Shown here in pieces: positions 41,023-59,031 of a DNA stretch of 64,000 nt. The first letter of the stretch is position 1. Every line of letters begins with the position of its first letter. This DNA comes from Candidatus Latescibacterota bacterium (GTDB lineage: Bacteria; Latescibacterota; UBA2968): the NCBI GenBank assembly GCA_965207885.1, contig OZ242311.1:4032001-4096000 (forward strand), given 5' to 3'. The notes below the pieces were generated by a model. It was given only the letters and a program-made list of their open reading frames with translations. It was not told the DNA's origin and searched no databases. The position numbers were made by a program, and so were the translations under genes.

Positions 41023-41027
41023 GGAGT

Positions 41028-41064: not shown

Positions 41065-41406
41065 GGTAAAACCTCGCTGTCAGAGAGTACCCCATTCTCC
41101 GACGCCCATAAATTTAGGGTATTCGCCCAGGATACGCAATCCACTTGTCCCCAGACGACATATACGTTTCAACAGCTGCGCGAGTGATATGCAAAATCGA
41201 GCTTGATAAATTCGATTCTCAATATATCTTCATTGTCTCTACTATCCCATGAATACTGAGGACACTTCAATGTCTGGCAAACAGAATCATGGAGAAAGCT
41301 TGGGATGCGGATTCAATGATCAGGAACGCGAAGGCGTTGCAGCGTGTAGTGAAGGAATTGAAAAAGAACAGGTCCGAACCATTGCTATATTAAAATCGGA
41401 GGAAGG

Positions 41407-43644
41407 ATGTCTCACCGTATATTTGCACACAGGCGTTCGTCAAAATATCGCCTGTTGTTGATTGCGATCCTTGCATTACTCGTATATGTGAGCCAGATTT
41501 CTGTACAGGGCATGTCGCCCGGGGAGGTCACACCTGATCAGGATGAACTTACCCAATCATCCGCCCTGGAGAGCACGGGTGGAGTACAAAATCTGGATGT
41601 GTCCAATGCGGTGCTCTCCTTTACGCAACAAGCGACCACTTGCCCCGGTGATTTTGACGGCAATGGGATGGTCAACATCGCTGATTTTCTGCTCTTTACC
41701 GGCGTGTTTGGCACCTCTTCAGGCGATGCCAATTACAACGCGCTTATGGATATGGACGGCAATGGTGAGATCGGCATCGCTGATTTTCTACTCTTTACCG
41801 GCGTGTTTGGCACCACCTGCGAGGTATCGTCACAGCAGTACGATGAGTTCACGAGTTCCCAAGGCCGCACGATCCGATACCGCTTGTATTTTGATGATGC
41901 GTGGAACCCCCGCGAGCCACGCGGCCTTTTGATTTTTTTTCACGGTACCAACAATGGTACGGAGCAACAGATGCTTGAGTGGTTCAGAGGGTTCGCGCAG
42001 TTGGCTCAGGACGAAGGTCTCGCGTACGCGGTTGTTGCTTCGCCGGCATCGGAGGGGGAGGGGCATCCATTCCGTCTGCTCGGTTCCTTGTTGAATGGAG
42101 GCGGTCGGAGGTATTGGGTTCCGAGGGATTATCGGCTGGTCCATGAATTGCTGCAGAGTGGTTTCAACGGGTCAATGGTCATCGACTACGATTCCATAGT
42201 GTTCTACGGTGGCTCGCAGGGGACGATCTTTCTTATTGATTTCGTTGAGCGATATGCGGGCGTGTATGGTGGAGGACTCTGGGCTTCGTGCGGCGGTGTA
42301 GGGGACGACGGTGTGACGTTTATGCGCGATTACGGTTTGTCGGAATGGGAACCTCTTTTCTCCTGGACTCCGTCGTCGTCCGCCTTTGTCAGAGAGCGTT
42401 TTCGCGTTTTCGTAGAAGCCACCACTGGCGATTTTTTGCACACGAGGGCGGTTTTGACCGCCCATTACTACTCAGAAATCCTTGGATTGGATGTGGAGGC
42501 GGAATTAGAGGCTCCCGGCGGCCACTGCGCAGACGGGCTTGTCAAATGGACAAGACGGCAAGTCGTTCCGTGGTTAGCGGATGGCGGTCGCCAAATGCGG
42601 ACACAAATACCACGCGATGGCGATGCCGATGGCGACGGGATCGAAGACGAACGGGACAGCGATGCCGATGGCGACGGATCACTCAATTTCATTGACGCGC
42701 TTCCGCTGGATGCCCGCGACTGGCTGGATACCGACGCTGATGGTATTGGCAACTTCATGGATCGCGATGCAGACGGAGATGGTGTGGATAACGCTGCTGA
42801 CCCGTTCCCGCTAGATCCTGGCGAAAGCCGGGATACGGATGGCGACGGCGTGGGCGACAACCTTGATGACGACGACTCCGCAGGGCTTGCGTTGAAGAGG
42901 GTGATGTCCAGTTATGCTAAGTTTCCATCTGGTATTCGATCAAGCAAAGTCCATGCGCGGAAGCCCCCCGGGATTCGTTATCCGCCGCCAGAAGGGAATC
43001 GACAAGTTTACCTGTATCTGGAACTTGGGAATGGAGAAGTCATAAATATCATGGTTGACAGATTCGACCGGGACGAGCACTGCGAGACAACCCTGATTGA
43101 GGGACTGTGCGGCGACAACGACACCAAATATGCCGGTTACTGGGACGAGTATATCGACAAGATCTGGGTCGATCGGAACAACAACAGCATTCTGACAGAC
43201 GATGGTCCCCCACTCGTGCTTGGACCACTACATGTGAGGGTCGGTTGGAGGCCAGCTGTTACTACCGATGTTAAAGTTTCGTACGCTTCGGGCAAGAAAC
43301 TTCCCTACTGGCTCCAACTCTCGGTGCATTCTGATCTGGCCAGAGGTGTGCGTTATTTCGGAGGCAGCATCTGGACGGGTTCTGTAGAGACGCCTGCCGG
43401 AGAGCGGATTCTGGTAGCGACAGCTGACCTGAATGCGGATGGCCTGTTTGATTCGGAAGACAAGGACATCGTTTGTATTGATCTTGACCGAAACGGCGCA
43501 TTCAATGAGTGCCTTCTGGGCGAAGATAGGAGAACAAGGCCAGGCGCTTTTAGGCCCGGCGAATACTTCATCCTTGACGGACACGAACTCCAGGTTATCG
43601 TATCGCCATCAGGGCAGGATGTCGAAATCATCGCTGCGCGCTGA
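41407..43644 (+). CDS. Secreted protein: EF-hand/dockerin-like module, alpha/beta-hydrolase-like domain, thrombospondin type-3-like Ca-binding repeats
   Basis: DFDGNGMVNIADF/DMDGNGEIGIADF; FHG, GGSQG, GGH; DADGDG..D.FPLD repeats. Confidence 0.75.
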   Translation: MSHRIFAHRRSSKYRLLLIAILALLVYVSQISVQGMSPGEVTPDQDELTQSSALESTGGVQNLDVSNAVLSFTQQATTCPGDFDGNGMVNIADFLLFTGVFGTSSGDANYNALMDMDGNGEIGIADFLLFTGVFGTTCEVSSQQYDEFTSSQGRTIRYRLYFDDAWNPREPRGLLIFFHGTNNGTEQQMLEWFRGFAQLAQDEGLAYAVVASPASEGEGHPFRLLGSLLNGGGRRYWVPRDYRLVHELLQSGFNGSMVIDYDSIVFYGGSQGTIFLIDFVERYAGVYGGGLWASCGGVGDDGVTFMRDYGLSEWEPLFSWTPSSSAFVRERFRVFVEATTGDFLHTRAVLTAHYYSEILGLDVEAELEAPGGHCADGLVKWTRRQVVPWLADGGRQMRTQIPRDGDADGDGIEDERDSDADGDGSLNFIDALPLDARDWLDTDADGIGNFMDRDADGDGVDNAADPFPLDPGESRDTDGDGVGDNLDDDDSAGLALKRVMSSYAKFPSGIRSSKVHARKPPGIRYPPPEGNRQVYLYLELGNGEVINIMVDRFDRDEHCETTLIEGLCGDNDTKYAGYWDEYIDKIWVDRNNNSILTDDGPPLVLGPLHVRVGWRPAVTTDVKVSYASGKKLPYWLQLSVHSDLARGVRYFGGSIWTGSVETPAGERILVATADLNADGLFDSEDKDIVCIDLDRNGAFNECLLGEDRRTRPGAFRPGEYFILDGHELQVIVSPSGQDVEIIAAR

Positions 43645-43774: not shown

Positions 43775-46240
43775 ATGAAAAAAAGCGTTCTATTCCTCCT
43801 GATTGGCATTTTTCTCTTAGCGACTGCCTGGGCAGAAGGGGATGCGACATACAAAAACACCGTGCGGACGTTTCTGGCGCAGCGATGTTATAAATGCCAC
43901 GGCGCAGAGCTTCAAAAAGCAGACCTGCGGTTTGACACCCTCACATTGGATTTTCACAATGAAGATGTCTTGCTCACATGGCAAAACATCGCCGACATGT
44001 TAAATCTCGGCTTAATGCCGCCCTATGAAGAGCCGCAGCCCGAACTGGCTGAGATGAAACCCGTAATCGACTGGATCACCGCCTCGCTAAAAGCGCATCA
44101 CGAAGCCGAAGAAAGCACGGGCGGACAAACGGTCTTGCGCCGATTAAATCGGAACGAATACCGCAACACCATTCGGGACCTGTTGCATCTGGACATGACC
44201 ATGTTCGACCCTACAAATGCATTTCCCCAGGACGATGAAGAACACGGATTTGACAACATCGGCAAAACACTCGTCATGTCGGATTTCCTGCTCGAAAAAT
44301 ACCTCGACGCCGCCGATCAAATTGTGGAACTCGCCGTATTGCCCGGCCCACAGCCGAAAGCGAAGACCTATGCGTTTGGGTCTCCTCTCATGCGCGGGGG
44401 CGGTGGCTTTTTGGCGTCGGCGGGCCGCCGCTTGAAGCAGGGATACGACGAACTATTCCGCCGTCCCGACGACCGCTGGGGATACATGTCCATCGACAGA
44501 TTCCGAAAAGGCGTACCGCATTCGGGAATGTACCGCGTACGCGTTCGCGCATCTGCACACAACCAGCAACATCCCTACGATAGAATACTCCGAACAGATG
44601 AAAATGAACCCATACGCATGGGAATCGTGACGACGTCGGGACGTTATGGCGATTTGAGACGGGGCAATGCATCGGATGTGCCGTTGATCGAATTTGAAAT
44701 GATCGCAGACGGCAAACCGCGCGATTATGAATTTGAACGCTATCTGGATAAGTCTTATCTGCCGCGCGTCACCTATCCAAACGGACCGATCAGTTTTTTT
44801 TGGAGAAATCTTCTAAGGCACTATCATTTCCAACTCCTCAACAGGACGGATCGGCGCAAGCTGACGCGAGAAGAGAGTCAAAAGATCGTAAATCAGCAAA
44901 CAGAGATCCTGGTGCAGAATTATCAGGGACCGAGCATTCGCGTGTATGAAATCGAGATCGAAGGTCCGTTTTACGACCAGTGGCCTCCGCCTTCGCACAC
45001 GAGCATCTTTGGCAAACGCGATCCCGACAAAGTCAAACCGCGCGATATCCTGACCCGCTTTGCAACGCGCGCGTATCGCCGCTCGGTCAAACACAGTGAA
45101 ATCGCGCACATCCTGCAACTGGTCGAGCAGGAAGAAAAAGCCGGCGCCTCGCGCGTTCAGGCCATCACAATGGGCTTAAAAGCCATCCTGTGTTCTCCCA
45201 ACTTCCTCTATCTCTACGAAAACGAAGGCCGATTAGACGACTACGCACTCGCGTCCAAGCTGTCGTATTTTCTCTGGTCATCCATGCCCGACGAAGAATT
45301 ATTTGAGCAGGCCAGGAAAAAGCGATTGCACAAACCCGAAGTTCTGCGTGCGCAAATTGATCGCATGTTAAAAGACGAAAAAGCGCAGGCATTTGTAGAG
45401 AACTTCACAGAGCGCTGGTTGGCCCTGTACAAAATCGGCGAAATGCCGCCCGACCCGCGCAATTTCCGACTGTACTATCAGGCGCATCTCGAAGACGCGA
45501 TCAAAAAAGAAACCCACGCCTATTTTCAGCACATCCTGGACAAAAACATGAGCATCGCGCATTTCATCGACTCGGACTTCACCTTCGTCAATCGCGACCT
45601 GAGCTTGTTATACCGCATAGAAGGCATAGAAAGCCGGGAATTTCGCAAAGTAAAACTCAACGACCCCAACCGCGGTGGCCTGCTGGGACACGCCAGCGTA
45701 TTGACGGCAACCTCCAACGGAATCGAAACCTCGCCCGTAGTGCGCGGCGTATGGGTATTGGAGAATATATTGGGCATCACACCCCCACCACCCCTGCCCG
45801 ATATCGAACCGATCGAACCCGACATACGAGGATCGACGACCATACGCCAGCAACTGGCAAGCCACCGCAATATCGCCACCTGCAACGAATGCCATCGCCA
45901 CATCGATCCATTGGGCTTTGCACTGGAAAATTTCAATCCCATAGGCGCGTGGCGATCTGGTTACGGTCCCAAGAAACCAAAAATAGATGCGTCAGACGTC
46001 CTGTCTGACGGCAGCAAATTCGACGACCTTGTGGGCTTTAAGAAAATATTGATGCAAAAGAAAGATCAATTTGCCCGCTGCCTGACCGAAAAAATGCTCA
46101 CCTACGCGACCGGACGCACGCTGGAAGCCACTGATCGCCCCGAAGTGGATCGCATCGTACACAACTTAAAAACACAGGGCTATGGCTTGAAAGACCTGGT
46201 CCTGCTCATCGCGACGAGCGAACCGTTCTTGACCAAATAA
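43775..46240 (+). CDS. DUF1592/DUF1588-family planctomycete-type cytochrome c protein
   Basis: CYKCH, LRRLNRNEY.NT, LSYFLWSSMPD, RGGLLG, TSPVVRGVWV, CNECH..IDPLGFALENF. Confidence 0.9.
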   Translation: MKKSVLFLLIGIFLLATAWAEGDATYKNTVRTFLAQRCYKCHGAELQKADLRFDTLTLDFHNEDVLLTWQNIADMLNLGLMPPYEEPQPELAEMKPVIDWITASLKAHHEAEESTGGQTVLRRLNRNEYRNTIRDLLHLDMTMFDPTNAFPQDDEEHGFDNIGKTLVMSDFLLEKYLDAADQIVELAVLPGPQPKAKTYAFGSPLMRGGGGFLASAGRRLKQGYDELFRRPDDRWGYMSIDRFRKGVPHSGMYRVRVRASAHNQQHPYDRILRTDENEPIRMGIVTTSGRYGDLRRGNASDVPLIEFEMIADGKPRDYEFERYLDKSYLPRVTYPNGPISFFWRNLLRHYHFQLLNRTDRRKLTREESQKIVNQQTEILVQNYQGPSIRVYEIEIEGPFYDQWPPPSHTSIFGKRDPDKVKPRDILTRFATRAYRRSVKHSEIAHILQLVEQEEKAGASRVQAITMGLKAILCSPNFLYLYENEGRLDDYALASKLSYFLWSSMPDEELFEQARKKRLHKPEVLRAQIDRMLKDEKAQAFVENFTERWLALYKIGEMPPDPRNFRLYYQAHLEDAIKKETHAYFQHILDKNMSIAHFIDSDFTFVNRDLSLLYRIEGIESREFRKVKLNDPNRGGLLGHASVLTATSNGIETSPVVRGVWVLENILGITPPPPLPDIEPIEPDIRGSTTIRQQLASHRNIATCNECHRHIDPLGFALENFNPIGAWRSGYGPKKPKIDASDVLSDGSKFDDLVGFKKILMQKKDQFARCLTEKMLTYATGRTLEATDRPEVDRIVHNLKTQGYGLKDLVLLIATSEPFLTK

Positions 46241-46336
46241 AAACAAACTGGATTATTGGCGTCAATGACACCTGTTGCTCGTCACGCCCCTGCTTAGAGC
46301 ATATAAAGGACTTCTTGAACAGCCTGGAAGAGAACC

Positions 46337-46504
46337 ATGAAACGCGATCCTATTGTTGAAGAAATTCACCAGACGAGACAGAAACTCCTACAAGAGTGTG
46401 GTGGCGATATCAACCAGTTAATGGACCGCTTAAAAGCCGCTGAAATACAAGACCGATATCGCGTGGTCAGCACCATCTCTGTCCGCAAGACCTCATTCTC
46501 ATAA
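46337..46504 (+). CDS. Small protein (MKRDPIVEEIHQTR...), antitoxin-like
   Basis: 55-aa ORF translated by hand; DPIVEEI..R start resembles small PIN-toxin partner proteins. Confidence 0.45.
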   Translation: MKRDPIVEEIHQTRQKLLQECGGDINQLMDRLKAAEIQDRYRVVSTISVRKTSFS

Positions 46505-46588
46505 TCAGGGTTATAGGAATAACAAATATCAATCACAGGCTTGAACACAAGCCTTAAATACTCCACCAAAAGGGGGAATGCCAAGCCT

Positions 46589-47527
46589 ATGATAGATGAA
46601 CTGAGTAAAATTCGCCATGCGCGTTTTCGTATGGAGATGGTGGCGGTTGACCGCTTAAAATTGCCGTCCTATAAAGGATCGACCTTTCGAGGAGCTTTTG
46701 GGCATGCGTTCAAAAGGCTGGTGTGTGTCAAGCGGGATATGGACTGTTCGACGTGTCTGATCTGCGCCCAGTGCGTTTATTATTATATTTTTGAGACACC
46801 GTTTAGCGGTGGGGAAGATAGCCGAGGTTACGCTTTTGCGCCACATCCGTTTGTGATTGAACCGCCCGGTGAGACGCGCCAGATTTACGAGATGGGCGAT
46901 GATCTACCCGTCGGCCTTGTTCTGGTGGGGCGGGCACTGGATTCTCTGCCGTATTTTATTTATGCCTTTGAAGAAATGGGACATCGGGGCTTGGGTACAG
47001 GGCGCGGCAAAGTTGCGCTGAAGCGGGTTGTTGCGCTGAGTGCGGCGGGCGAACAATGCATTTATGAGGCGGATACGGGCATATTGGATCTGGATTACCC
47101 GGTTTCCACGGGGTTGTCCAGTGGAGAAGAGATCGGGCCACTATTGCATCTGCGGTTGCAGACCCCGCTCCGTCTCAAAACACGGGGGCGCTATGCTTCT
47201 CGACTCGATTTTTCCTTGCTGGTGCGTGCGCTACTGCGGCGCATTTCAGATTTGACGCGCTTTCATTGCGGTGCGGAACTGGAGCTAAATTACGATCAGT
47301 GGATTGCGCGGGCAGAAAAAGTGCAGACTGCGGCGGTGAATACGCGCTGGTACGATTGGGAGCGGTATTCATTGCGCCAGGACCAAAAGATGAAATTGGG
47401 CGGTCTGGTGGGCGATGTGGTTTTTACCGGGGATATAGAGCCGTTCATGCCGCTTTTGCGCCTGGGCGCAGACTTGCATGTGGGCAAGGGCACGGGCTTT
47501 GGCCTGGGGCGTTATGAGATTTTGTGA
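46589..47527 (+). CDS. cas6: CRISPR pre-crRNA processing endoribonuclease Cas6
   Basis: GSTFRGAFG, Cys cluster, PHPFVIEPP, C-terminal HVGKGTGFGLGRY G-rich loop. Confidence 0.93.
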   Translation: MIDELSKIRHARFRMEMVAVDRLKLPSYKGSTFRGAFGHAFKRLVCVKRDMDCSTCLICAQCVYYYIFETPFSGGEDSRGYAFAPHPFVIEPPGETRQIYEMGDDLPVGLVLVGRALDSLPYFIYAFEEMGHRGLGTGRGKVALKRVVALSAAGEQCIYEADTGILDLDYPVSTGLSSGEEIGPLLHLRLQTPLRLKTRGRYASRLDFSLLVRALLRRISDLTRFHCGAELELNYDQWIARAEKVQTAAVNTRWYDWERYSLRQDQKMKLGGLVGDVVFTGDIEPFMPLLRLGADLHVGKGTGFGLGRYEIL

Positions 47528-47534
47528 GGGATAG

Positions 47535-49436
47535 ATGGCGGACATACAGGACATGTTGCATCAGGCGCGACAGCATATCGAGGCAGAGGAATTTGATCGC
47601 GCCGAGAGTTTGTGCGCCGATGTACTGGTGACCGATCCGGTTAGCGTGCTGGCGCACCAGTTGATGGCGCGGGTGTGGCTGGGGCGGAACGAACCAGATA
47701 AGGTGCGCGACCGCATCGCGTATCGCGACCAGTTGCCCTGCGATGAACACTATGTCGAATGGGGTCTGATCGCCGAGGAGGTGGAGGCGTTGGAAACCGC
47801 GGTTCAGATCTATGAAGACCTGCTAAAACGGGCACCGGAAAATGGCGTGGTGCTCTACCGATTGGGCCTGATCTGTCTGGAACGCGGCGAGCGGGACAGG
47901 GCCGTGGGCCTGTTGCAGCGCGTCCTGCGGGTGAGTCCAGATCACGCTGCGGCTGCTTTTGAACTGGCGCAATGCTATGTCGAAGACGAGTTGTGGGGGC
48001 TGGCCGCAGATGCCTATGAGCGGGGCCTGGCGAGCGATCCGGATAATGAGGAGGCGCAGACCGCACTTCAGGTGGTGATGGCGCGGATGCGAGAGTTGGC
48101 GCAATTGCCCAGCAGCGAGGTGCCGTCTGGAGAGGGGGCCGCGCGGCGGATGCGGATCTTATTTGCCGGACGGGAAGGGATGCATGCGCGGCAGTGGATA
48201 GATGAGGATGGTCGGGTCGGGTACAGTCCGGTGCAGGAGCCGCTTGCCGATCATCTGCTCTCTCTGCATCTGCAAGGCTCGGCGACTTTGGGCGTGTACC
48301 CGGTGCGGGCAGATCAAACAGTGCTTTTTGGCGTTATTGATATCGATATCCGCAAAAGTGCCCTGAAAGCGGGCGAGGCAGGGCAGTCCGTATCTGATCG
48401 GCTTCAAGAGTTGGTGCTGGCCGACGCCCGGCGACTATCACGGCGGTTCGATGAATTACACCTGCCGGTCTATGTGGAAGACAGTGGATACAAGGGGGTG
48501 CATCTGTGGCTTTTTTTTGCGGAGCCGGTGCCCGCGGCAGTGGTGAAGCGTTTTTTAGAGGCGGTTGTCCAGCGGGTCGGTCCGCCTGGGCCAGAGCTTC
48601 AGTGGGAAGTTTTTCCCAAGCAAGAGCAAGTCGCTGAAGATCAACTGGGCAATTTGATCAAGTTGCCGCTGGGGATTCATCTGAAGACCGGGCGAAGGTG
48701 TTTGTTCACGGATTTGGAAGGGCAAGAATACAGCGACCAGGAAGGTTTCCTCCAGCGCATCCAGCAGGTCGAGCGACAGGCTTTTGAACAGGCGGTGTCC
48801 CGATTGGTGGCGCCACCTGAACAAGGTGGTGTTGCCGGGTCAGTGGAAACACTACGAGAAGCTTTTCCCGAGTACGAAGCCCTTTTCAAGGGGTGTCCGG
48901 TGCTGGTCGCTCTGATGGAAAAAGCCGTGATTACGCATCATCTCACGCACGATGAACGCCTGGTGCTCAAGTGCGTTTTGGGACATTTGGACGATGGTGG
49001 GCACCGGCTGATCCACGGTATTATAGGGCATTGTCTCGATTACTCCGAGAAGATTACGCAGCAGCAGATTGAGCGCACGCCGCCCTATCCCATCAGTTGT
49101 CCCAAGATTCGCCAGCGTCTCCCCGAGGTTACTTCGACGGTCAACTGCGCGTGTGTGTTCGATTTGCCCGAAGGGGGGTATCCTTCTCCGCTGTTGCATC
49201 TCGATGCAACTTTTACCAGAGGTCGGTCACAAAGTGCAGACCGCCACGGGCCTCTGGTGGATAAATACGTGACTTTGCAGCGGGATTACCAGCGGTTGAA
49301 ACGCGAGTTGGCGCAACTCGAAGACGATTTGTACTATGCCATTACCTCGGCAGATCAGGATGAATTGCGGGCCGGTGGATGGATTTTGCGCCGGGATGGA
49401 GACGGGCGTTTCCAGGTGGAGGTTGACCTGGGGTGA
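47535..49436 (+). CDS. CRISPR-associated primase-polymerase (TPR + AEP + Cys-rich C-terminal domain)
   Basis: N-terminal TPRs; AEP motifs VIDID, SGYKGVHLW, GNLIKLPLG; C-terminal GCP..HCLDY..PISC..CAC; GTGA overlap with cas1. Confidence 0.88.
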   Translation: MADIQDMLHQARQHIEAEEFDRAESLCADVLVTDPVSVLAHQLMARVWLGRNEPDKVRDRIAYRDQLPCDEHYVEWGLIAEEVEALETAVQIYEDLLKRAPENGVVLYRLGLICLERGERDRAVGLLQRVLRVSPDHAAAAFELAQCYVEDELWGLAADAYERGLASDPDNEEAQTALQVVMARMRELAQLPSSEVPSGEGAARRMRILFAGREGMHARQWIDEDGRVGYSPVQEPLADHLLSLHLQGSATLGVYPVRADQTVLFGVIDIDIRKSALKAGEAGQSVSDRLQELVLADARRLSRRFDELHLPVYVEDSGYKGVHLWLFFAEPVPAAVVKRFLEAVVQRVGPPGPELQWEVFPKQEQVAEDQLGNLIKLPLGIHLKTGRRCLFTDLEGQEYSDQEGFLQRIQQVERQAFEQAVSRLVAPPEQGGVAGSVETLREAFPEYEALFKGCPVLVALMEKAVITHHLTHDERLVLKCVLGHLDDGGHRLIHGIIGHCLDYSEKITQQQIERTPPYPISCPKIRQRLPEVTSTVNCACVFDLPEGGYPSPLLHLDATFTRGRSQSADRHGPLVDKYVTLQRDYQRLKRELAQLEDDLYYAITSADQDELRAGGWILRRDGDGRFQVEVDLG

Positions 49437-50431
49437 TTCTCTATGTGACAGATCAGGGTACGGGGGTTTATCGCCGCGGAGAGCGGTTGCAAGTTCGGCG
49501 GCACAAGCAAGTGCTGACCGAGGTGCATTTGCACGATCTGGAACAGGTGGTGCTTATGGGGCAAATCGCGCTTTCTTCTCAGGCGATGAGCACGTTGCTC
49601 GAAAAAGGGGTGGATACGGTTTTTCTGAGTACCAATGGACGGTATCGGGGGCGGCTGGTTGGCCCAGCGCGGCGCAATGTGGTGTTGCGACAAAAGCAGT
49701 TTAAGTGCTATGAGGATGAGCAGTTTCGTCTGCGTGTGGCGCGGGGTGTGGTGGAGGGTAAACTCCGCAATATGCGGACGCTGCTCATGCGTCTGGCGCG
49801 GCGGCGCAAGGTGGATGTGGGCACGGTGGCGCATAGATTGCGCCGGTCAATTCAGCAGGTGGGACAGGCGACCAGTGCCGAGTCTCTGCGCGGGATTGAG
49901 GGGGCGGGCACCGCGGCTTATTTTGGTGTGCTTGGGGCTTTTTTCCCCGAAGGATTCGCGTTTCAGGGGCGCAACCGCCGTCCGCCGAGAGACCCGGCCA
50001 ACGCGCTGCTCAGTTTTGGGTATGCCCTGCTGGGCAATAGCATAGAAGGCGCGATTTATCTGGTTGGTCTCGATCCGTATCTGGGTTTTCTGCATGTGGT
50101 TGATTATGGGCGTCCTTCTCTATCACTGGACTTGATGGAGGAGTTTCGGCCCGTGCTGGTGGATGCGCTGGTGCTGGATTTGATCAACCACAATCGGGTG
50201 CAGAGCGCGGATTTTGAAGCGCGGGATGGGGGCGTATTTTTGCAGGGCGAGGGCCGCAAGCGGTTGATTGAGGGGTACCAGCGACGTCTTGAAGACCGGG
50301 TAACTTATCCCGTGGGGGGCGAGCGGGTGGAGCGGATTTCTTACCGGCGTTGCCTCGAATATCAGGTGCGTCGATTGGCGCGGGTGATTATGGGCGAGGA
50401 GGCTCAGTACAGGGCTTTTCTGGTGCGTTGA
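49433..50431 (+). CDS. cas1: CRISPR-associated integrase Cas1
   Basis: LRGIEG..A..YF, RNRRPPRDPANALLSFGY, GFLH, DLMEEFRP. Confidence 0.97.
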   Translation: MILYVTDQGTGVYRRGERLQVRRHKQVLTEVHLHDLEQVVLMGQIALSSQAMSTLLEKGVDTVFLSTNGRYRGRLVGPARRNVVLRQKQFKCYEDEQFRLRVARGVVEGKLRNMRTLLMRLARRRKVDVGTVAHRLRRSIQQVGQATSAESLRGIEGAGTAAYFGVLGAFFPEGFAFQGRNRRPPRDPANALLSFGYALLGNSIEGAIYLVGLDPYLGFLHVVDYGRPSLSLDLMEEFRPVLVDALVLDLINHNRVQSADFEARDGGVFLQGEGRKRLIEGYQRRLEDRVTYPVGGERVERISYRRCLEYQVRRLARVIMGEEAQYRAFLVR

Positions 50432-50474
50432 GATGTTTGTAACGATCCGCAGGCATGTCCCTGCGGGTGTAAGC

Positions 50475-50522
50475 AGGGATGGACACAGAGAAAAAATGAG
50501 GGATGGACACAGAGAAAAAATG
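50475..50522 (+). repeat. Perfect 24-bp tandem duplication at the cas2 start
   Basis: AGGGATGGACACAGAGAAAAAATG occurs twice in tandem. Confidence 0.9.
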
Positions 50523-50795
50523 TTTGTGACGATTTGTTTTGATATCAGTTCTGACCGCACGCGCCGGCAGGCGACCCGGGTGCTGGAGGCTTATGCAACG
50601 CGGGTGCAAAAGAGTGTGTTCGAATGTCGCATTGCCGAACGGCAATTTGTCGAGTTGCGGCAGCGCATGAGTCAAATTGGTCTGGCTGAAGGCGATCTGG
50701 TGCGCTATTATACGCTGTGTCGCGCATGCGAGCGTAAGATCGAGTTTACCGGCGGTTCTCCCCCGCAGGATGAAAAAGATCATCTGATTGTTTGA
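50520..50795 (+). CDS. cas2: CRISPR-associated protein Cas2 (alternative in-frame start at 50433)
   Basis: ICFDISSDR, RVQKSVFEC, D.VRYYTLC..C. Confidence 0.95.
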   Translation: MFVTICFDISSDRTRRQATRVLEAYATRVQKSVFECRIAERQFVELRQRMSQIGLAEGDLVRYYTLCRACERKIEFTGGSPPQDEKDHLIV

Positions 50796-51054
50796 TAGCT
50801 GGTCTTTGCGACCCGGATTAGAAAGGGTTTGTCAATATGGCGCATTGAATTTCTACTGCTTTTAATCGGTGGGAATTAGCTACGTCACTTAACCCTATTC
50901 TGGGTCGCGAATTTGTAATTTCTTGTCCTACAATAGATTAACAGAAAGGGACTTCTATGATTGAAGAAAAATGGATGGATAAACGCCTGTCAATATGGCC
51001 TGAGTCGCAAAAGCACCTCAAACAGACTGTGACTCAACAAGTTAGAAAGGAGGG
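50796..51054 (+). promoter_or_regulatory. CRISPR leader
   Basis: AT-rich non-coding region between cas2 and repeat 1; inverted motifs TTTGCGACCC / GGGTCGCGAA / GAGTCGCAAA and direct repeat TGTCAATATGGC (50830, 50988). Confidence 0.75.
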
Positions 51055-51248
51055 ATTGGAAGGAATTGACCCGCTCATAGAGGATTGAAACTTAATATAC
51101 CTGTTGGCAGGTTATCGGAGTGGTCATTTGACGAATTGGAAGGAATTGACCCGCTCATAGAGGATTGAAACTTAATATACGTTTCATGGATCTTCCGGTC
51201 GCCGGCGTAGATTGGAAGGAATTGACCCGCTCATAGGGGATTGAAAAC
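51055..51248 (+). CRISPR. Mini CRISPR array: 3 repeats (37 nt), 2 spacers (43 and 39 nt)
   Basis: ATTGGAAGGAATTGACCCGCTCATAGAGGATTGAAAC at 51055 and 51135, degenerate trailer copy at 51211; ends in the ATTGAAAC handle. Confidence 0.92.
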
Positions 51249-51269
51249 TTCGTCATCAAGGGATATGTC

Positions 51270-52991
51270 GTGCAGATCGCGGAACCCGTATTGAAAGCCA
51301 TCCAGGACAGAGGCAGACGAGGATTGCCCCTTGAGAATATTTATCGACACCTCTACAACCCGGACCTCTTTTTACGCGCTTATGGACGGCTGTATCGAAA
51401 AGCTGGCGCGACCACACAGGGCATTACAAAAGAGACCACAGATGGCATGTCTATGGCGAAGATCAATGCCCTCATCGAGGCATTCCGCTGCGAGCGGTAT
51501 CAATGGACGCCTGTTAAGCGCATCTATATTCCCAAAAAAAATGGGGGGCGGCGTCCGCTCGGCATACCGGTTTGGTCTGATAAACTGGTGCAAGAAGTTA
51601 TGCGATCTTTGTTGGGCGTCTATTATGAACCCCAATTTAGTGACCTGTCCCACGGCTTTCGGCCTCAACGGGGCTGCCATTCTGCACTTGCGGAAATTTT
51701 GAGATGGAAAGACATAGACTATTTTATCGAAGGCGATATCAAAGCCTGTTTTGACAGTATTGATCACGAATGTCTGCTGTCTATTTTGAAGGAGAAAGTC
51801 CGCGATGATCGGTTTATCGACTTAATTGGGGATTTGCTCAAGGCCGGATGCGTCGCGTACGGGCGTTACGAATCTACTCCGAGTGGTACGCCACAAGGCG
51901 GTCCCATTAGTCCACTTCTCGCAAACGTTTATCTCGACAGGTTGGATGAGTTCGTCGAAAATACGCTTGTGCCTCTTTACACAACGGGCGAGAAACGCAT
52001 AGAGGCGAGTTGGAAGACGCCAGAGGAGTTGCAGAGGGTTCTGAAGATATTGGATACGCAGGGTCCCGATTTTAGACGTATTCGCTATATCCGATACGCC
52101 GATGATTTTTTGATCGGTTTTACCGGGCGAAAGGCAGAGGCTAAAGAGATCAAACAATGTCTCAAAGAATTTTTGCAAGAGACGCTGAAATTGGAACTGT
52201 CAGAGGACAAAACCTCAATTACCCACAGCCGCAAAGAGACAGCACACTTTCTCGGATACGAGATCAAGAATCTGAATGGGTCAACGCAAAATACACTGAG
52301 CCTGAGTGTGCCGAAAAAAGCCGTGAAAGAGAAGTGTAGCTTGTATCAAAAACGCGGGCGTGTCACATACTGTGCCGAACTGCTGCATGACAGCGATTGG
52401 GAAATCATAAGTCTTTTTCAGAGTCGATATATCGGATATGTGCAATACTATATTTTCGCACACAATGTCCATATCTTAAACGTATTGCGCTGGGTGATGA
52501 GTGCGTCTTTGCTCAAGACGCTTGCGAAAAAGCATAAGACACATGTGAATCAACTTATGAAGCAGTATAAAGCGACTATCCAGACGCCTTATGGCCCGCT
52601 GACGTGTTTGGAGATGCCTGTTTTGTGTGAAGGTGGGCAATTGAGGACGGCGCGTTTTGGTGGCTTCTCTCTCAGGCCGAGGGAAGGCATACCCCTTGCA
52701 GACCGCGACCCAAACAGGGAGATGCGGTGCAAGGGGATAGAACTGATCCAGCGCTTGCTGTCAAACCAGTGCGAATGCTGCGGCGCAACAGGCCAGGTGG
52801 AAGTGCATCATGTCCGAAAACTTGTCCATAGAGAAGGGCAAGTATCAGAGCACACATGGATGCGAGACATGGTTACACGAAAGCGAAAAACCCTTATCGT
52901 GTGCAAAACATGCCACCAGGCAATCCATTCTGTGACAAAAACAAGGAAGAAAAACAGGTATCGGGGAATGCACGCAACACAACGCCAGTAA
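51270..52991 (+). CDS. Group II intron-type reverse transcriptase/maturase with HNH domain; no flanking intron RNA recognised
   Basis: YIPKKNG..RPLGIP..DKLVQ, SHGFRP.R, EGDIK.CFD.IDH, GTPQGG.ISPLLAN, RYADDF, maturase domain, C..C..EVHH..C..CH..IH. Confidence 0.92.
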   Translation: MQIAEPVLKAIQDRGRRGLPLENIYRHLYNPDLFLRAYGRLYRKAGATTQGITKETTDGMSMAKINALIEAFRCERYQWTPVKRIYIPKKNGGRRPLGIPVWSDKLVQEVMRSLLGVYYEPQFSDLSHGFRPQRGCHSALAEILRWKDIDYFIEGDIKACFDSIDHECLLSILKEKVRDDRFIDLIGDLLKAGCVAYGRYESTPSGTPQGGPISPLLANVYLDRLDEFVENTLVPLYTTGEKRIEASWKTPEELQRVLKILDTQGPDFRRIRYIRYADDFLIGFTGRKAEAKEIKQCLKEFLQETLKLELSEDKTSITHSRKETAHFLGYEIKNLNGSTQNTLSLSVPKKAVKEKCSLYQKRGRVTYCAELLHDSDWEIISLFQSRYIGYVQYYIFAHNVHILNVLRWVMSASLLKTLAKKHKTHVNQLMKQYKATIQTPYGPLTCLEMPVLCEGGQLRTARFGGFSLRPREGIPLADRDPNREMRCKGIELIQRLLSNQCECCGATGQVEVHHVRKLVHREGQVSEHTWMRDMVTRKRKTLIVCKTCHQAIHSVTKTRKKNRYRGMHATQRQ

Positions 52992-52996
52992 TCCAT

Positions 52997-53020
52997 GTAG
53001 GGGCGAGGCATGCCTCGCCC
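52997..53020. repeat. REP-like palindrome
   Basis: GTAG followed by the perfect 20-bp palindrome GGGCGAGGCATGCCTCGCCC. Confidence 0.7.
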
Positions 53021-53081
53021 GTGCCCTTCATTGCGGTGTGGTATTGCGTTGCACCACCCAGGCTGAACATAAGGAGAATTC

Positions 53082-53228
53082 ATGGTCAAACAGATATTAT
53101 TATGTACCGTCGGAGGCTCTCATCAACCGATTCTCGAAGCAATTAAATCATCGTCACCGTGCCATGTCTGTTTTTTTGCACGGACCGCCTCCTTCACATC
53201 CCATAACCAGCGAAGGAACAATCCATGA
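53082..53228 (+). pseudogene. N-terminal stub of a second TIGR02710-type CARF gene
   Basis: AAGGAG RBS; MVKQILLCTVGGSHQPILEAIKSSSPCHVCFF matches the next gene's MSETILLCTVGGSHQPILAAIETNSPKLVCFF; frameshift in a T7 run. Confidence 0.8.
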
Positions 53229-54487
53229 GCGAAACCATCCTTCTTTGCACCGTTGGCGGCAGCCACCAGCCTATCTTGGCGGCCATTGAAACAAACAGTC
53301 CGAAACTCGTTTGCTTCTTCTGTACCGAAGGACAGGCTGGTTCCGAGGTTCAAGTAATCGGCGAGGGCAAAGTTATCAAGGACAAACTGCAAGACAGCAA
53401 AGCAACATTGCCCAATATCCCCACCCAAGCGCGAGCGCAGGGTTGGAATGGTACCTATAAGATAAAGATCGTCCCTCCAGACGATTTGGATGGGGCCTTC
53501 TTTGTTATCCGAAATACGATCCTAAAATTGGCCCATAAGTATCCCAATGCCGAATTGGTGGCTGACTACACCGGTGGCACAAAGACGATGACGGCGGCCT
53601 TGGTCAGTGCTGTGTTGGATACTGAGCGCGTCGAGCTCCAACTCGTTGCTGGCGAACGCAGAGATCTCATACAAGTGATTCCGGATACCGAATTGTCGGT
53701 CGTCGCCAGCGTGACCCGATTGCTGATTGATCGTGACATCAAGCAATTTCTGGCCGCTTGGCGTCATTTCGGCTACCACGAAGCAGCAGAAGGGCTGAAG
53801 AAAGTGCGTATCGCGGCTGATTCGCCCGACTTTGAGCGTTTGCACCAAGCATATATGTTGAGTCAGGGCTTAGCATTGTGGGATAGATTCGATCACGCTG
53901 GCGCACTTGAAAAGATTCAACCGCTGGAGCAAATTAAAGCTGCCTATCCGTATATGATGCCGACGCTGGGACAGCTTAAGGCAGACCGAGAACAAGCTCT
54001 CTTATTCGACCTCTGGTTAAATGCCGAGCGGCGTGCGGCCCAGGGTCGCTTTGACGATGCGATTGCGCGGTGGTATCGCATGATGGAGTGGACAGCCCAA
54101 TGGCAACTCCGAACGAAACTCAACGCCGATACCGGGGACTTTTCAGGCGATTTGCTGCCGAAGCAGGTTCAGGCGGCCCCGGATTCAGATGGTAAAATTA
54201 AAATTGGGCTTTGGAAGGCATGGCAAGTCGTAAAATACCGTTGCGAACTATCGGGTCCTGCTCAGGACTTCATCAAAAAGCACGGATCAAAGCTCCTCGA
54301 TTTACTCGAGATTCGCAACAATTCGATACTGGCTCACGGTTTTTGTCCTGTGAGTTCTTCGAACTGGCAAGAGGTGCATAATTGGACACAAGATAAATTC
54401 CTGCCCGTTCTGCGTACCCTGGCCGAAGAAGTGGGCTTGAAAAGCGAGCCGAAACAACTCCCGACCGAATTTCCAGAGAGCATCTGA
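53225..54487 (+). CDS. TIGR02710-family CARF-HEPN type III effector
   Basis: LCTVGGS, DYTGGTKTM (CARF), WDRFDH..A, RNNSILAHG (HEPN). Confidence 0.9.
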   Translation: MSETILLCTVGGSHQPILAAIETNSPKLVCFFCTEGQAGSEVQVIGEGKVIKDKLQDSKATLPNIPTQARAQGWNGTYKIKIVPPDDLDGAFFVIRNTILKLAHKYPNAELVADYTGGTKTMTAALVSAVLDTERVELQLVAGERRDLIQVIPDTELSVVASVTRLLIDRDIKQFLAAWRHFGYHEAAEGLKKVRIAADSPDFERLHQAYMLSQGLALWDRFDHAGALEKIQPLEQIKAAYPYMMPTLGQLKADREQALLFDLWLNAERRAAQGRFDDAIARWYRMMEWTAQWQLRTKLNADTGDFSGDLLPKQVQAAPDSDGKIKIGLWKAWQVVKYRCELSGPAQDFIKKHGSKLLDLLEIRNNSILAHGFCPVSSSNWQEVHNWTQDKFLPVLRTLAEEVGLKSEPKQLPTEFPESI

Positions 54488-54641
54488 ATTGTGTCCGACA
54501 ATCACAGCCTTGCTGATACGTTTGTACGAGGCGGATTGTCACTGATGAGACACAGAATGGTGTGAATGGTAGAGATATATTGTCAGGGCACAAGTAGCCG
54601 TGCTGGCAGATTTATTTTGACAAAAATGAGAGGGTAATCAG

Positions 54642-56246
54642 ATGGCAACAGGCAAAATCATGAATTGGAAAGGAAAATACGGATTTATTGAAAATGATGC
54701 TGGAGGGCAAAATGTTTTCTTACACATCAATGAAGTTGATCAAGACGATAGAGGATTCTTGACTAAGGGCACAAGAGTTGATTTCGATATACAAGAAGTG
54801 CCTCAAGGATTGGCAGCAAATAATGTTCGTTTCTTGAAATTTCACAATCCATATACCTTTGTCCCTACCCCTCCGCGTCAGGATGCAATAAAAGCGGGTG
54901 GGTTTGCTGGCGATTTTGATCCCTTGGAGTGTGGTCTCAGCCATGCATGTCTTGATCCGGATCTATGGACAGGACATCTGCCAATCAAGCTGACCACGGT
55001 CACACCCCTGGTATTGCCGAAAACTGATGGTGAAGAACGTTTGTCAACTGAGCACCAAACTTATGATGTCCTCAACTATTTGCCGGAATCGTCCCTGCGC
55101 GGCATGTTGCGAAGTGCCTACGAAGTGGTGACGAACTCGCGCTATAGTTGTTTTAGCAACGATGACCGATTGAAGTTTCGTTTAGGTCGAGAAAAGAGAA
55201 CATATGAAAAGAGTCCCAAAGACCTTCTCGACTTCTCACTAAGATCAGCGGATAAGATGAGTAAGCTGTCTCCCGCGGATCGTTTGTTCGGGTGGGTACC
55301 TCAGCAATCCGGTAGCGACCAGGGGTACAAGGGCCGCATACGGGTCGTTTGTGAAGATGATGCACGATCTGAGATTATCCAACACTTTGATGGTAAAGAC
55401 TTGCCATTGACGATCCTCGGAGAGCCAAAACCCGCACAAGGCCGTTTTTATGTTGCTAAAGATAAAAAAGGTACGCCGCAAGAAGATGGCATTAGCAAGG
55501 AGCAAGCTGGCTACAGTGGAGGTAAGGGCTTACGAGGTCGGAAGCAATACTGGCACCATAAAGGGCTGGAAGCGGGTCAGGCACGAGACTATTGGAAATC
55601 GTCAGTAGATGACCGAACGCAGCAACAAAACAATGGTCGGTATCAAGAATATCGCCGTCCCAATAAAAATGGAGAGCCACAAAAAGATGCTCAAAACCGC
55701 AGCATTACCGGATGGATTAAGCCAGGTACGGTTTTTAAGGCATCCCTATATGTACAAAATCTGCAAACTGAAGAAATTGGTGCATTGCTTTGGCTGCTAT
55801 CGCTTCCCTCAGACCATTACTTCCGGCTGGGATATGGCAAGCCATTGGGTTTTGGCAGCGTGAGGATAGAGGTTGATGAGGAGCGATGTGTAAATGGATG
55901 TCTGCCACTCGGCACTGGCAAAGATTGGAAAAGCTACTATGCAACCTTTTATACTTCCCCACCGGCAACACTAAATGAGGACCAACGAAAGGGCTGTATT
56001 CAAAAATTTAAGGCCAGTATGGTAGCTGCGTACGATTCAAAACATTTTAATAATCTACCTTTTATCAGCGGATTTCTGAAAGTTCTAAAGGGTCCAAAAA
56101 AAGATGCACCCATTCACTATCCACGGCTGGAATACAAACCCAATCCCAAAGGCGAGAATTTTCGATGGTTCGTCGCAAATGAAAAAGGTAAAAGACTTGC
56201 GCTTCCAGCGGTTACAGCGAAGAAGGGGCTACCTTATCAACCCTGA
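54642..56246 (+). CDS. cas7: TIGR03986-type Cas7 (RAMP) with N-terminal cold-shock domain
   Basis: CSD KYGFI..VFLH..GLAANNV; FHNPYTFVP, SSLRGMLRSAYE.VTNS, LSPADRLFGWV, LRGRKQYWH, LGYGKPLGFGSV. Confidence 0.87.
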   Translation: MATGKIMNWKGKYGFIENDAGGQNVFLHINEVDQDDRGFLTKGTRVDFDIQEVPQGLAANNVRFLKFHNPYTFVPTPPRQDAIKAGGFAGDFDPLECGLSHACLDPDLWTGHLPIKLTTVTPLVLPKTDGEERLSTEHQTYDVLNYLPESSLRGMLRSAYEVVTNSRYSCFSNDDRLKFRLGREKRTYEKSPKDLLDFSLRSADKMSKLSPADRLFGWVPQQSGSDQGYKGRIRVVCEDDARSEIIQHFDGKDLPLTILGEPKPAQGRFYVAKDKKGTPQEDGISKEQAGYSGGKGLRGRKQYWHHKGLEAGQARDYWKSSVDDRTQQQNNGRYQEYRRPNKNGEPQKDAQNRSITGWIKPGTVFKASLYVQNLQTEEIGALLWLLSLPSDHYFRLGYGKPLGFGSVRIEVDEERCVNGCLPLGTGKDWKSYYATFYTSPPATLNEDQRKGCIQKFKASMVAAYDSKHFNNLPFISGFLKVLKGPKKDAPIHYPRLEYKPNPKGENFRWFVANEKGKRLALPAVTAKKGLPYQP

Positions 56247-56290: not shown

Positions 56291-57382
56291 ATGGGAACAC
56301 AACTTATTTTTACTGTTGGAACCAATCCACTACCGATATGGGTGGCGTGGCATCATTTGAAAGACAAACTATCAGAGCCTGTTCAGGTTCGACTTGTGCA
56401 TACAGCGGACACAGAAGATGAAAAAGATCGGCTAAAAAAGTATTGTCACGGTGCGGCCTTTCTTGATCCGATTCAAACGTCCGACGGCGACCCTCGTACT
56501 GTACGTGAGGATATCAGGACTATCGCTGATGGCCTCTCAGACGAGACCAACCTTCTGCACATTCACTACACTGGCGGTACCAAGGTGATGGCCGTTGAAA
56601 CTGTCGCCGCCCTTGAAGCCACTTTACCGAAAAATATCCACTTGGATACCTCCTATCTGGACCCACGCGCCACATCAGGTCCCGCTATCGTGAATCGGGC
56701 TGGGAAAACTTGGGTCCGAGATACTCGTAAGAATATTACTGCTGATCTTGCTCGTATCGCTCTCCTCAACGGTTTTACTCTCGGGCCGTTTAAACACAAA
56801 TATTGGGATAAAGAGGCCAACTGCTATGAAACGGACGACTGTCCGGCTCCTGGAATACCCACTCAAAATCAATTGGACAAGGGCAGAAAGGCTATTACAG
56901 GCGGTGGGCGTATCACATGTTACAAACTCTTAGAACACGGTGCCTATGCCGCATTTAAGGATGCATTGGAGGAGGTTTCTACGAGCAATTCAAATCGTAA
57001 TAACTATAAACTTTTCCACAATGTGTATGTCCGACGTATAAGAGCATCACAGAGTGCAAAGCCCTTCGAGCTTGATGTAGTAGCAGTACTGGGGTATCAG
57101 ATTGTCGTTGTTTCATGTACTCTTGATGGGAGTCATGACAAGATAAAACAAAAAGGTATGGAGGCCATTTTGCGAGCAAGGCAACTCGGTGGTGATGAAG
57201 CGCGGGCCATTGTTTTGTGTAGTGCTCACCAGAATGATGCTAAACTCATTGAAGATGAGTTAAGGGATGAAATGGGTAGTGCGAGCGAGCCTTTACAAGT
57301 TTGGGAAAGGAATAGGTGGCCTATGCCTATGTTGTCAGATGCGTTTTATCAATATCTGCGTAATGACCTGCATTGGAAGTGA
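56291..57382 (+). CDS. Can2/Card1-like CARF + PD-(D/E)xK-type nuclease (DUF1887-like)
   Basis: VGTNPLP, HYTGGTKVM, FELDVV...VSCT, RARQLGGDEAR. Confidence 0.85.
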   Translation: MGTQLIFTVGTNPLPIWVAWHHLKDKLSEPVQVRLVHTADTEDEKDRLKKYCHGAAFLDPIQTSDGDPRTVREDIRTIADGLSDETNLLHIHYTGGTKVMAVETVAALEATLPKNIHLDTSYLDPRATSGPAIVNRAGKTWVRDTRKNITADLARIALLNGFTLGPFKHKYWDKEANCYETDDCPAPGIPTQNQLDKGRKAITGGGRITCYKLLEHGAYAAFKDALEEVSTSNSNRNNYKLFHNVYVRRIRASQSAKPFELDVVAVLGYQIVVVSCTLDGSHDKIKQKGMEAILRARQLGGDEARAIVLCSAHQNDAKLIEDELRDEMGSASEPLQVWERNRWPMPMLSDAFYQYLRNDLHWK

Positions 57383-57396
57383 GTGGGGATATACTT

Positions 57397-59031
57397 ATGT
57401 CAAATTCTCTTTATATGGGTCAATGTGTTGCAGTCTTCGGTACTGCGAGTCTTCAGCGATACATCTTTCAGAGCAATCGACTGAAAGAGAATATCGGTGC
57501 GTCCTATCTCGTAAAATACTGGCTTGACGAGGGCTTGGTTGAGGCCATAAAGCAGTCTGGCTGTACGGTTGATACGACTGTGTGGGATGAGTACAAAACA
57601 AATCCCTCAATGTCTCGGCCTGCAAAGCCAGTGGACATATCGAAAGATGTCAATTTCATCTATGTCGGTGGGGGTAATGCTGCGTTGCTGTGCAAAAGCC
57701 AGGAGACTGCTAAAGATGTTGTCAAAATATGGAGCCACAAGCTACTCGAACATGCACCTGGACTCCGGGTGGCCGTTGGGTATGCGGATGTTGAGAACTC
57801 ATTGGCTGAGGCATATCGTTCCGCGTTAGAAAACCTGTCACAATGCGAGGAAGCATTGCCGTTTGGGGACACCTTGTACAGCTTACCCGTTGTTCGCACT
57901 TGCACGACTACTGGGCTTCCTGCGAGCGTACCCAGCAAAGAAGAGAACAATGAGGAGGAGTGGATATCGCAGTCTGCGTCGAGCAAGCGAAATCAAGTCG
58001 GCTCTGAACGCAAGTCAGGTGCTGCCCAAAGGGATATTAGACGCGAATTCAAATCGGTTCTGCAAAGAGGTCAAAACTTTGCCATTGAACTCGACAAACT
58101 GGGTGGGCGTAAAGGAGAATCGCATATTGCTGTCGTGCATGCTGACGGCAATGGAATGGGCAAGCATCTTATAGATGTGGTGAACAGTGCAGAAGATGAT
58201 GAGGAATTTCTCCATCACATCCGAGCATTTTCGGCCTCTGTGTCGCGTCTGTCCCAGAGTGCCCTACAGGAGACATTGCAATATCTACAGGAAGAGTTGC
58301 CGAACCTGAAAGGGGATTTGTCGCTGGGAGAAGAAAAAATTTTTCCTTTGCGTCCTATCGTGTACGGAGGCGATGATTTGACATTTGTATGCGATGGTCG
58401 CGTGGGTCTCGATCTGGCGGCCTTCTATTTGAAGGCGTTTTCCAAAGGCAAGATCAAAGTCCGTGGTAAGGATGAACCCGTTGATGCCTGTGCGGGGGTA
58501 GCCATTGTGCCTACAAAATTTCCCTTTGCCCGCGCGTATCATTTTGCTGAAGAACTCTGCGGATTGACCAAGTCATACCTTCGTGAGAGAGATTTAACTG
58601 GCAGTTGGCTGGATTTTCAGATTATCCAGGAAGGTATCACCCGATCCATTTCGGCACTGAGAGCCGCACAGTATCGTAGCTTTGAGGGACAAACACTGCA
58701 TCAGCGTCCTTATCAGGTACCGGAAAAATGGGACGTTTTTGTTGAAATTTTGAAGGAATTTCAAGCGTCGTGGCCCCGCAACCGTGCCAAAGGGCTTTTG
58801 CAGGCTCTAACGCAGGGACCTGCGGCAACGCAACGCTTCGTTGAGGGCGCACGGTGGCGTGATGTGAAGTTACCATCGTCTTCGGTAAGTGGTACAGGTT
58901 GGACGGGTGGAGATCCTCCTGATCGCACCACGCCGTATTTCGATCCGCTCGAAACACTTGATTTCTATCTGGAAGTGAAGAAACCAGCAAAAAATGGCGA
59001 GAAAGCAGGTAAGGAGATCAAGAATGACTGA
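57397..59031 (+). CDS. cas10: Type III-D Cas10 (palm domains, GGDD intact, no HD domain)
   Basis: QRYIFQSNRLKENIGAS, YVGGGNA, HADGNGMG, YGGDDL. Confidence 0.92.
   Translation: MSNSLYMGQCVAVFGTASLQRYIFQSNRLKENIGASYLVKYWLDEGLVEAIKQSGCTVDTTVWDEYKTNPSMSRPAKPVDISKDVNFIYVGGGNAALLCKSQETAKDVVKIWSHKLLEHAPGLRVAVGYADVENSLAEAYRSALENLSQCEEALPFGDTLYSLPVVRTCTTTGLPASVPSKEENNEEEWISQSASSKRNQVGSERKSGAAQRDIRREFKSVLQRGQNFAIELDKLGGRKGESHIAVVHADGNGMGKHLIDVVNSAEDDEEFLHHIRAFSASVSRLSQSALQETLQYLQEELPNLKGDLSLGEEKIFPLRPIVYGGDDLTFVCDGRVGLDLAAFYLKAFSKGKIKVRGKDEPVDACAGVAIVPTKFPFARAYHFAEELCGLTKSYLRERDLTGSWLDFQIIQEGITRSISALRAAQYRSFEGQTLHQRPYQVPEKWDVFVEILKEFQASWPRNRAKGLLQALTQGPAATQRFVEGARWRDVKLPSSSVSGTGWTGGDPPDRTTPYFDPLETLDFYLEVKKPAKNGEKAGKEIKND

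Follow-up and report, generated by a model that had tools for sequence, protein, structure and literature searches.

Organization of the CRISPR locus

The window, i.e., the whole stretch of 64,000 nucleotides analyzed here, holds a type III-D CRISPR locus, the features of which are listed in Table 1. The genes for Cas6, a CRISPR-associated primase-polymerase (CAPP), Cas1 and Cas2 precede a leader and a short array, and the array is followed by an RT gene, a CARF/Csm6-like gene, cas10 and csx10, as well as RAMP genes. The CAPP gene scored above the cut-off of its NCBIfam model and directly adjoins cas1. The leader is kept up to the repeat junction in two sister species of the same genus (G014 and G020), with which it shares 86-88% nucleotide identity.

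Table 1. Features of the CRISPR locus; positions are those of the window.
Feature	Position	Strand	Remarks
cas6	46541..47527	+	Pfam CRISPR_Cas6, 9.8e-20
CAPP gene	47535..49436	+	N-terminal TPR repeats; NCBIfam NF040561 4.8e-109, 365 bits (cut-off 200); Pfam AEP-TOTE
cas1	49433..50431	+	Pfam Cas_Cas1, 4.1e-101
cas2	50433..50795	+	Pfam CRISPR_Cas2, residues 30-102
Leader	50796..51054	+	259 nt; ends in ...AGAAAGGAGGG, followed by ATTGG of the repeat
Repeat R1	51055-51091	+	37 nt, ATTGGAAGGAATTGACCCGCTCATAGAGGATTGAAAC; A at position 27 (51081)
Spacer S1	51092-51134		43 nt, starts with TTAATATAC
9-mer TTAATATAC, copy 1	51092-51100	+	Identical to 51172-51180
Remainder of S1 after the 9-mer	51101-51134	+	34 nt, matches own chromosome
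Repeat R2	51135-51171	+	37 nt, ATTGGAAGGAATTGACCCGCTCATAGAGGATTGAAAC, identical to R1; A at position 27 (51161)
Spacer S2	51172-51210	+	39 nt, starts with TTAATATAC; older spacer
Terminal repeat R3	51211-51248	+	38 nt; G at position 27 (51237)
RT/maturase/HNH gene, group II intron-type	51270..52991	+	Pfam RVT_1, Intron_maturas2, AI2M-like_HNH
CARF/Csm6-like gene	53225-54487		Downstream of array
cas10	57373-59031		Downstream of array
csx10	58994-61396		Downstream of array

The conserved part of cas2 starts near position 50520, and the relatives align from residue 29-30, while the first ~29 codons of the open reading frame lie in an insertion of a dispersed repeat. This 89-nt insertion (50431-50519) between cas1 and cas2 comprises the ~45-nt dispersed repeat and a 24-nt tandem duplication (50475-50522), separates cas1 from the native start of cas2, and is absent from a related strain (run X7). 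The dispersed repeat occurs in many copies in the same genome and across the genus, and was found at very high depth in metagenome contigs.

The RT gene scored 277 bits against TIGR04416, which is under the cut-off of 300, and no Rfam match was found at E<=1 in positions 46000-56000, i.e., there is no group II intron RNA (domains V/VI) around the gene. Two true group II introns are located elsewhere in the genome (RF00029, 68 bits), and the RT identity to them is about 50-53%. The RT gene is syntenic in G014 and G020 with 87-88% amino acid identity, and its dN/dS (0.11-0.14) indicates the same purifying selection as that on cas6, CAPP, cas1 and cas2 (0.09-0.13). Judged from its sequence, the RT looks like a domesticated, CRISPR-linked intron protein with its endonuclease domain kept.

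The array is far shorter than those of the sister species. Only 21 nt (51249-51269) separate R3 from the start codon of the RT gene, compared to 69 nt in G020 and ~200 nt in G014, and there are 2 spacers here as opposed to 17 and 30, respectively. These differences point to a large deletion that would have ended at or in a repeat and removed nearly all the spacers and the trailer that the sisters retain.

Several other elements were noticed in and around the locus. Just upstream of the CARF/Csm6-like gene, positions 53082-53177 carry a fragment of 32 codons that shares 72% identity with the N-terminus of that gene, a remnant of a duplication or rearrangement. At 38486-40807, there is an open reading frame of 773 codons made up of about a dozen tandem 126-nt repeats, with dockerin-like repeats nearby at 40634-41814. 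Outside the window, a second array of the same genome (G000:C1:5762642-5767575, partly in L006) has a leader similar to that of the present one and 33 repeats, which read ATCAGGAAGAATTACCCGCTTATTGGGGTATTGAAAC. An intact group II intron of 2426 nt (5764501-5766926, minus strand) resides inside one spacer of this second array, and the part of the interrupted spacer on the 5' side of the intron resembles the 5' exon of the other copy of the intron (L005), which suggests that the intron homed into a spacer mimicking its target.

Two spacers that begin with the same nine bases

The regular spacing of its three repeats (80 and 76 nt), the unrelated spacers and the adjoining cas1-cas2 genes identify the element as a CRISPR array. 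R1 and R2 are 37-mers that end with ATTGAAAC, and R3 differs from them by a G instead of an A at position 27 and by one additional A ahead of the final C. An earlier note on this DNA had pointed out that both spacers, 43 and 39 nt in length, open with an identical 9-mer, and the present analysis confirms this observation. The unit common to the first two copies thus extends beyond the repeat to 46 nt, with 51055-51100 and 51135-51180 agreeing at 46/46 positions, and R3 stands apart. The sequence following R3 is TTCGTCATC, which agrees with the 9-mer at only 4/9 positions. The affected unit is the leader-proximal and thereby the newest one, as S1 adjoins the conserved leader and degenerate repeats are found at the far end, both here and in relatives; R1 would be the new copy left by the last integration. 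By the geometry of the array, the 9-mer is predicted to adjoin the 8-nt handle in the crRNA.

The chance probability of ~4e-6 per pair given in the earlier note for a common prefix of 9 nt holds, as the base composition is near uniform. Among the 2045 within-array spacer pairs of seven related arrays (see below), the longest common prefix was 6 nt. The note had also raised an assembly collapse, and the read-derived data do not support one. In run X1, which may be the source sample of the genome and is then not independent of it, a 46-nt contig spans exactly 51055-51100 with a depth of 110, i.e., about twice the depths of its flanks (59.3 and 66.1) and of the two contigs bridging S1 (60 and 57.8), a pattern that fits a 46-mer present twice and spacers present once. 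Run X5, which belongs to another study, has a 151-nt record that spans 51072-51222 without any difference at a depth of 3. The read-derived cover of the array itself comes from X1 and X5, the contigs of X6 and X7 having no cover there, and only one genome lineage carries the array.

We noticed, post hoc, that GTTTCA at 51181-51186 (positions 10-15 of S2) forms an inverted repeat with the TGAAAC that ends R2 (51166-51171), so that the 9-mer is the exact loop between the two. R2 plus S2 folds no better than shuffled sequences (z 0.17). This inverted repeat may be a coincidence, and we derive no mechanism from it.

Origins of the two spacers

In a BLAST search against the 6.2-Mb genome of the organism, positions 10-43 of S1 matched G000:C1:5004468-5004501 on the minus strand at 34/34 positions with an E-value of 6.6e-13, and a separate DNA search recovered the same match. 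In the orientation of the spacer, the genomic flanks of the protospacer are ctggtgtca on the 5' side and tgtatcata on the 3' side. Since the match begins right after the 9-mer and the preceding nine bases in the genome are unrelated to it, the 9-mer did not come from the target of S1. The acquired fragment is bounded by the 9-mer on one side and by R2 on the other, and, on the sequence evidence, the truly acquired spacer is 34 nt of the organism's own chromosome. This insert is one base under the shortest of the 169 spacers used for comparison.

The protospacer lies inside a minus-strand open reading frame of 373 codons, which has weak homologues in the genus and for which no Pfam or PHROGs family was found; as neither collection gave a hit, there is no sign of a prophage at this position. 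Exact 23-mers of S1 had no match in viral contigs. S1 has the sense of the open reading frame, and therefore transcription from the leader side would yield a crRNA unable to pair with the mRNA of this frame. Such a lack of pairing would account for the tolerance of a spacer taken from the own chromosome.

S2, with its 39 nt, is of typical size: no other length is as frequent among the spacers of the congeneric relatives (32/120), and 38 nt comes next (30/120). Its protospacer was not found in the own genome, in 52 genomes of the order, in viral, phage and plasmid collections or in metagenome contigs. Specifically, exact 23-mers of S2 had no match in viral contigs and an exact 22-mer none in metagenome contigs, these exact-word scans, like that with S1, being blind to targets with even one mismatch. 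The 30 nt after the 9-mer had no match with up to three mismatches in the 52 other genomes of the order, and BLAST against phages and plasmids yielded only chance matches with E-values of 0.1 or more.

Spacers and repeats of related arrays

We compared the array with seven related ones comprising 169 spacers. G014 and G020 share the arrangement of cas6, CAPP, cas1, cas2, leader, array and RT with the present locus at 87-95% amino acid identity. Three additional congeneric genomes, G001, G016 and G018, possess CAPP-cas1 at 80-83% identity and arrays of 26, 25 and 22 spacers, respectively. The sixth array is the second one of the own genome (31 spacers), which belongs to a type III locus near 5.75-5.78 Mb with its own cas6, CARF, CAPP, cas1 and cas2 genes (39-56% identity). 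The last, with 18 spacers, is found in an archaeal MAG; its repeat agrees with the present one in the 3' 22 nt, and CAPP-cas1-cas2 lie in its vicinity. The unit after the last recognized repeat of each array and the intron-interrupted unit of the second array were left out of these counts, and the count for G001 takes in one 50-nt unit between two degenerate trailer repeats.

The repeats are 37 nt in all seven arrays. None of the 169 spacers starts with TTAATATAC and none is shorter than 35 nt; furthermore, the 9-mer was found nowhere within the 120 spacers of the five congeneric genomes. Neither the 9-mer nor any constant prefix was found in the 47 spacers of G014 and G020, two species whose RT and CAPP correspond to those of the present locus (87-93% amino acid identity). 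Because relatives with a near-identical RT and CAPP lack both, these two proteins do not appear to tag spacers. In the own genome, the 9-mer is not enriched, with 11 forward and 4 reverse copies as against ~21 expected per strand.

A search for the 23-nt core of the repeat with up to three mismatches found only this array in the own genome, and in 200 relatives it gave four isolated single matches with three mismatches, none of which is an array. A scan of genome contigs for an exact 22-mer of the repeat returned the one archaeal MAG, and no match was obtained with an exact 24-mer in metagenome contigs.

Further observations were made on the related arrays. In the archaeal array (L011, minus strand, 3555-4900), 15 of the 18 spacers open with A, so that either the effective repeat is 38 nt or one flanking base is taken along with each spacer. 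Across the congeneric species, the 5' half of the repeat diverges far more than the leader or cas1, e.g., ATTGGAAGGAATTGACCC versus AGCAGAACACTTGACCC at a cas1 nucleotide identity of 91-92%. G014 carries two repeat variants in contiguous blocks. At the end of the G001 array (L026, 9132-9300), the last two units, each a degenerate repeat with the same following sequence, are exactly duplicated, i.e., a duplication at the trailer end.

A probable overshoot of the second integration site and the alternatives

From the 46-nt identity, the exact 34-nt match to the own chromosome, the unrelated flank of that match and the prefix-free 37-nt repeats of the relatives, we infer that the second cut of a single integration fell 9 bp inside the older spacer and that the repeat was duplicated together with these 9 bp. 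We assign this reading a probability of about 0.8. The ancestral array would have consisted of the leader, one repeat, the older 39-nt spacer starting with TTAATATAC and the terminal repeat. A later acquisition would then have put the 34-nt fragment of the own chromosome at the leader-proximal repeat. [quoted passage not shown] Gap filling would have duplicated 46 bp, the repeat plus 9 bp, instead of 37 bp, giving the order leader, repeat, 9-mer, new spacer, repeat, 9-mer and the rest of the older spacer.

A single duplication of the leader-proximal unit would leave R1 and R2 perfectly identical up to and including the nine bases after each, and R3 different, as is observed. The nine surplus bases ahead of the new spacer (51092-51100) are the very bases that follow the original repeat (51172-51180). 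The only C in the 9-mer is its last base, and the proposed cut would thus have been made at the first G on the bottom strand beyond the canonical one. Several points speak against the overshoot: no protospacer of S2 was found in the collections searched, the new insert is one base shorter than any spacer of the comparison, 9 bp exceeds the shifts of 1-3 bp described for Haloarcula hispanica (PMC4872114), there is no alternative G-rich anchor ~10 bp upstream of the new terminus, and the array is confined to one genome lineage. The earlier note had listed a shifted integration boundary, with a repeat grown to 46 nt, as one of four explanations. This is the one that the data favor, given that the match of S1 starts exactly past the 9-mer and that the genomic flank is different.

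The pattern of identity would be the same if the unit had already been 46 nt long before S1 was acquired, owing to an earlier shifted event that has since been deleted, in which case S1 would have come in by an accurate 46-bp duplication and S2 would be a spacer of 30 nt. That the array has clearly lost material, as seen from the 17-30 spacers of the sisters and their 69-200 nt of trailer before the RT gene, leaves room for such a history. However, a 30-nt spacer would be unprecedented among the related arrays, and the 9-mer does not follow R3; we regard this history as improbable. Alternatively, the 9-mer may have been copied beside R1 by recombination within the array, gene conversion or replication slippage, and not by the integrase. 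Arrays do rearrange, as exemplified by the duplicated trailer unit of G001 and the deletion in the present array, and to this extent the recombination put forward in the earlier note has a basis. On the other hand, exchange between repeats copies or deletes whole units, not nine bases before an unrelated 34-nt insert that abuts the next repeat, and the limit of the self-match to exactly 34 nt would go unexplained. We consider this route to be quite improbable.

The remaining explanations of the earlier note place the origin of the 9-mer before the integration. A fixed 9-nt tag, primer or template-switch product put on each prespacer by the RT or CAPP would suit a locus that encodes both proteins and a protospacer of S1 from which the 9-mer is absent, and an RT-Cas1 enzyme has been reported to add short 3' DNA tails to RNA protospacers (10.1101/2023.09.01.555893). 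A tag of this kind is contradicted by the spacers of the two sister species and by the 169 spacers overall, in which no common prefix exceeds 6 nt. In addition, S2 read as a tag plus 30 nt would lack any parallel among the related spacers, and the 9-mer shows no enrichment in the genome. We thus hold the tag to be very unlikely. Nothing beyond the shared prefix itself favors the view that both protospacers natively hold the 9-mer through motif-biased acquisition, or that the match is due to chance or to an assembly artefact. Motif bias is refuted for S1 by the flank ctggtgtca of its protospacer. The probability per pair and the shorter prefixes of all the 2045 related pairs speak against chance, and the doubled depth of the 46-nt contig, the single-copy bridges over S1 and the identical record from X5 speak against an artefact. 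We find these three hardly credible, even taken together.

Repeat position 27 as a candidate cause

At positions 26-29, R1 and R2 read GAGG, where R3, the archaeal repeat and the repeats of every relative read GGGG. The GGGG faces a GACCC or ACCC motif, and ~10 nt separate it from the repeat end. Because R1 and R2 both carry the A, the change from G to A would have been present in the template repeat before the duplication, and, as R3 lacks the A, it probably arose after the acquisition of the older spacer. The aberrant event may hence be the first integration after the mutation. The calculated folding energy is -1.4 kcal/mol for R1, compared to -4.6 kcal/mol for R3 and -5.5 kcal/mol for the G014 repeat, a small CCC/GGG stem being lost in R1.

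We tentatively suggest that the change from G to A might have loosened the ruler of the integrase and caused the shift, although we infer this causality from a single event and lean slightly against it. It is unlikely that the change permanently reset the ruler, in which case each further acquisition by the array would duplicate 46 bp. If such a reset proved true, this wild genome would record the first step in the evolution of repeat length, with a self-derived spacer as the first product, the crRNA of which would carry nine target-foreign bases beside the handle.

Comparison with characterized integration systems

The closest precedent is the type I-B system of Haloarcula hispanica, in which mutation of the mid-repeat GTGGG led to the co-duplication of the base after the repeat, so that this base came to separate the new repeat from the new spacer (Wang et al. 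2016, PMC4872114). In that system, the terminus of the repeat lies ~10 bp from the center of the GTGGG motif (PMC4872114). [quoted passage not shown] Likewise, there is a mid-repeat pair of C-rich and G-rich motifs, with the G-rich one ~10 bp from the end, here GACCC and GGGG, and it is the G-rich motif that is mutated (PMC4872114). Unlike the H. hispanica constructs, the array is natural and not engineered, the overshoot is 9 bp and not 1-3 bp, the locus is of type III-D with CAPP and an RT, and the mutated motif is a candidate cause (PMC4872114).

When the repeat of the Streptococcus thermophilus type II-A system was mutated, a prominent aberrant second-site attack hit a guanine located 8 bases inside the spacer, in vitro as well as in vivo (Kim et al. 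2019, PMC6895254). The attack proposed here, 9 bases past the border, would also have occurred at the first guanine of the bottom strand (PMC6895254). The two cases differ in the type of Cas1-Cas2 and in the repeat, and the present one is known from its end product alone, as fixed in a genome (PMC6895254). For the type I-E repeat of Escherichia coli, two molecular rulers have been described (Goren et al. 2016, PMC5039180), and the concept that the size of the repeat is measured from internal motifs is common to that system and our interpretation (PMC5039180).

A CAPP-Cas1-Cas2 adaptation module is known from the type III-B system of Marinitoga piezophila (Zabrady et al. 2021, PMC8211822). Both loci have a CAPP gene beside cas1-cas2 in a type III context (PMC8211822), while the present one also encodes an RT of the group II type and effectors of type III-D (PMC8211822). 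The passages of that study on the module report no constant spacer prefix (PMC8211822).

Among the literature matches listed in our search, none reported that spacer bases had been co-duplicated in a natural array. We do not claim that such a report is absent from print, and the supplementary lists of duplicated sequences for H. hispanica (PMC4872114) may hold larger overshoots. Altogether, the array most likely records, in nature, a type of integration error that has so far been known mainly from laboratory mutants.

Implications

The rulers that set the length of a repeat have so far been defined with engineered repeats of types I-B, I-E and II-A. A wild type III-D array served by CAPP-Cas1-Cas2 now appears to record one error of such a ruler, and the match of the new spacer to the host chromosome allows the boundaries of the overshoot to be located exactly. 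In annotation, arrays in which spacers share a prefix should be read as cases of repeat overshoot; the true spacer here is 34 nt. The result also counts against the tagging of products by the RT or the primase-polymerase. With its candidate cause inside the repeat itself, the array offers a ready test substrate for the choice of the second site in the little-studied CAPP module.
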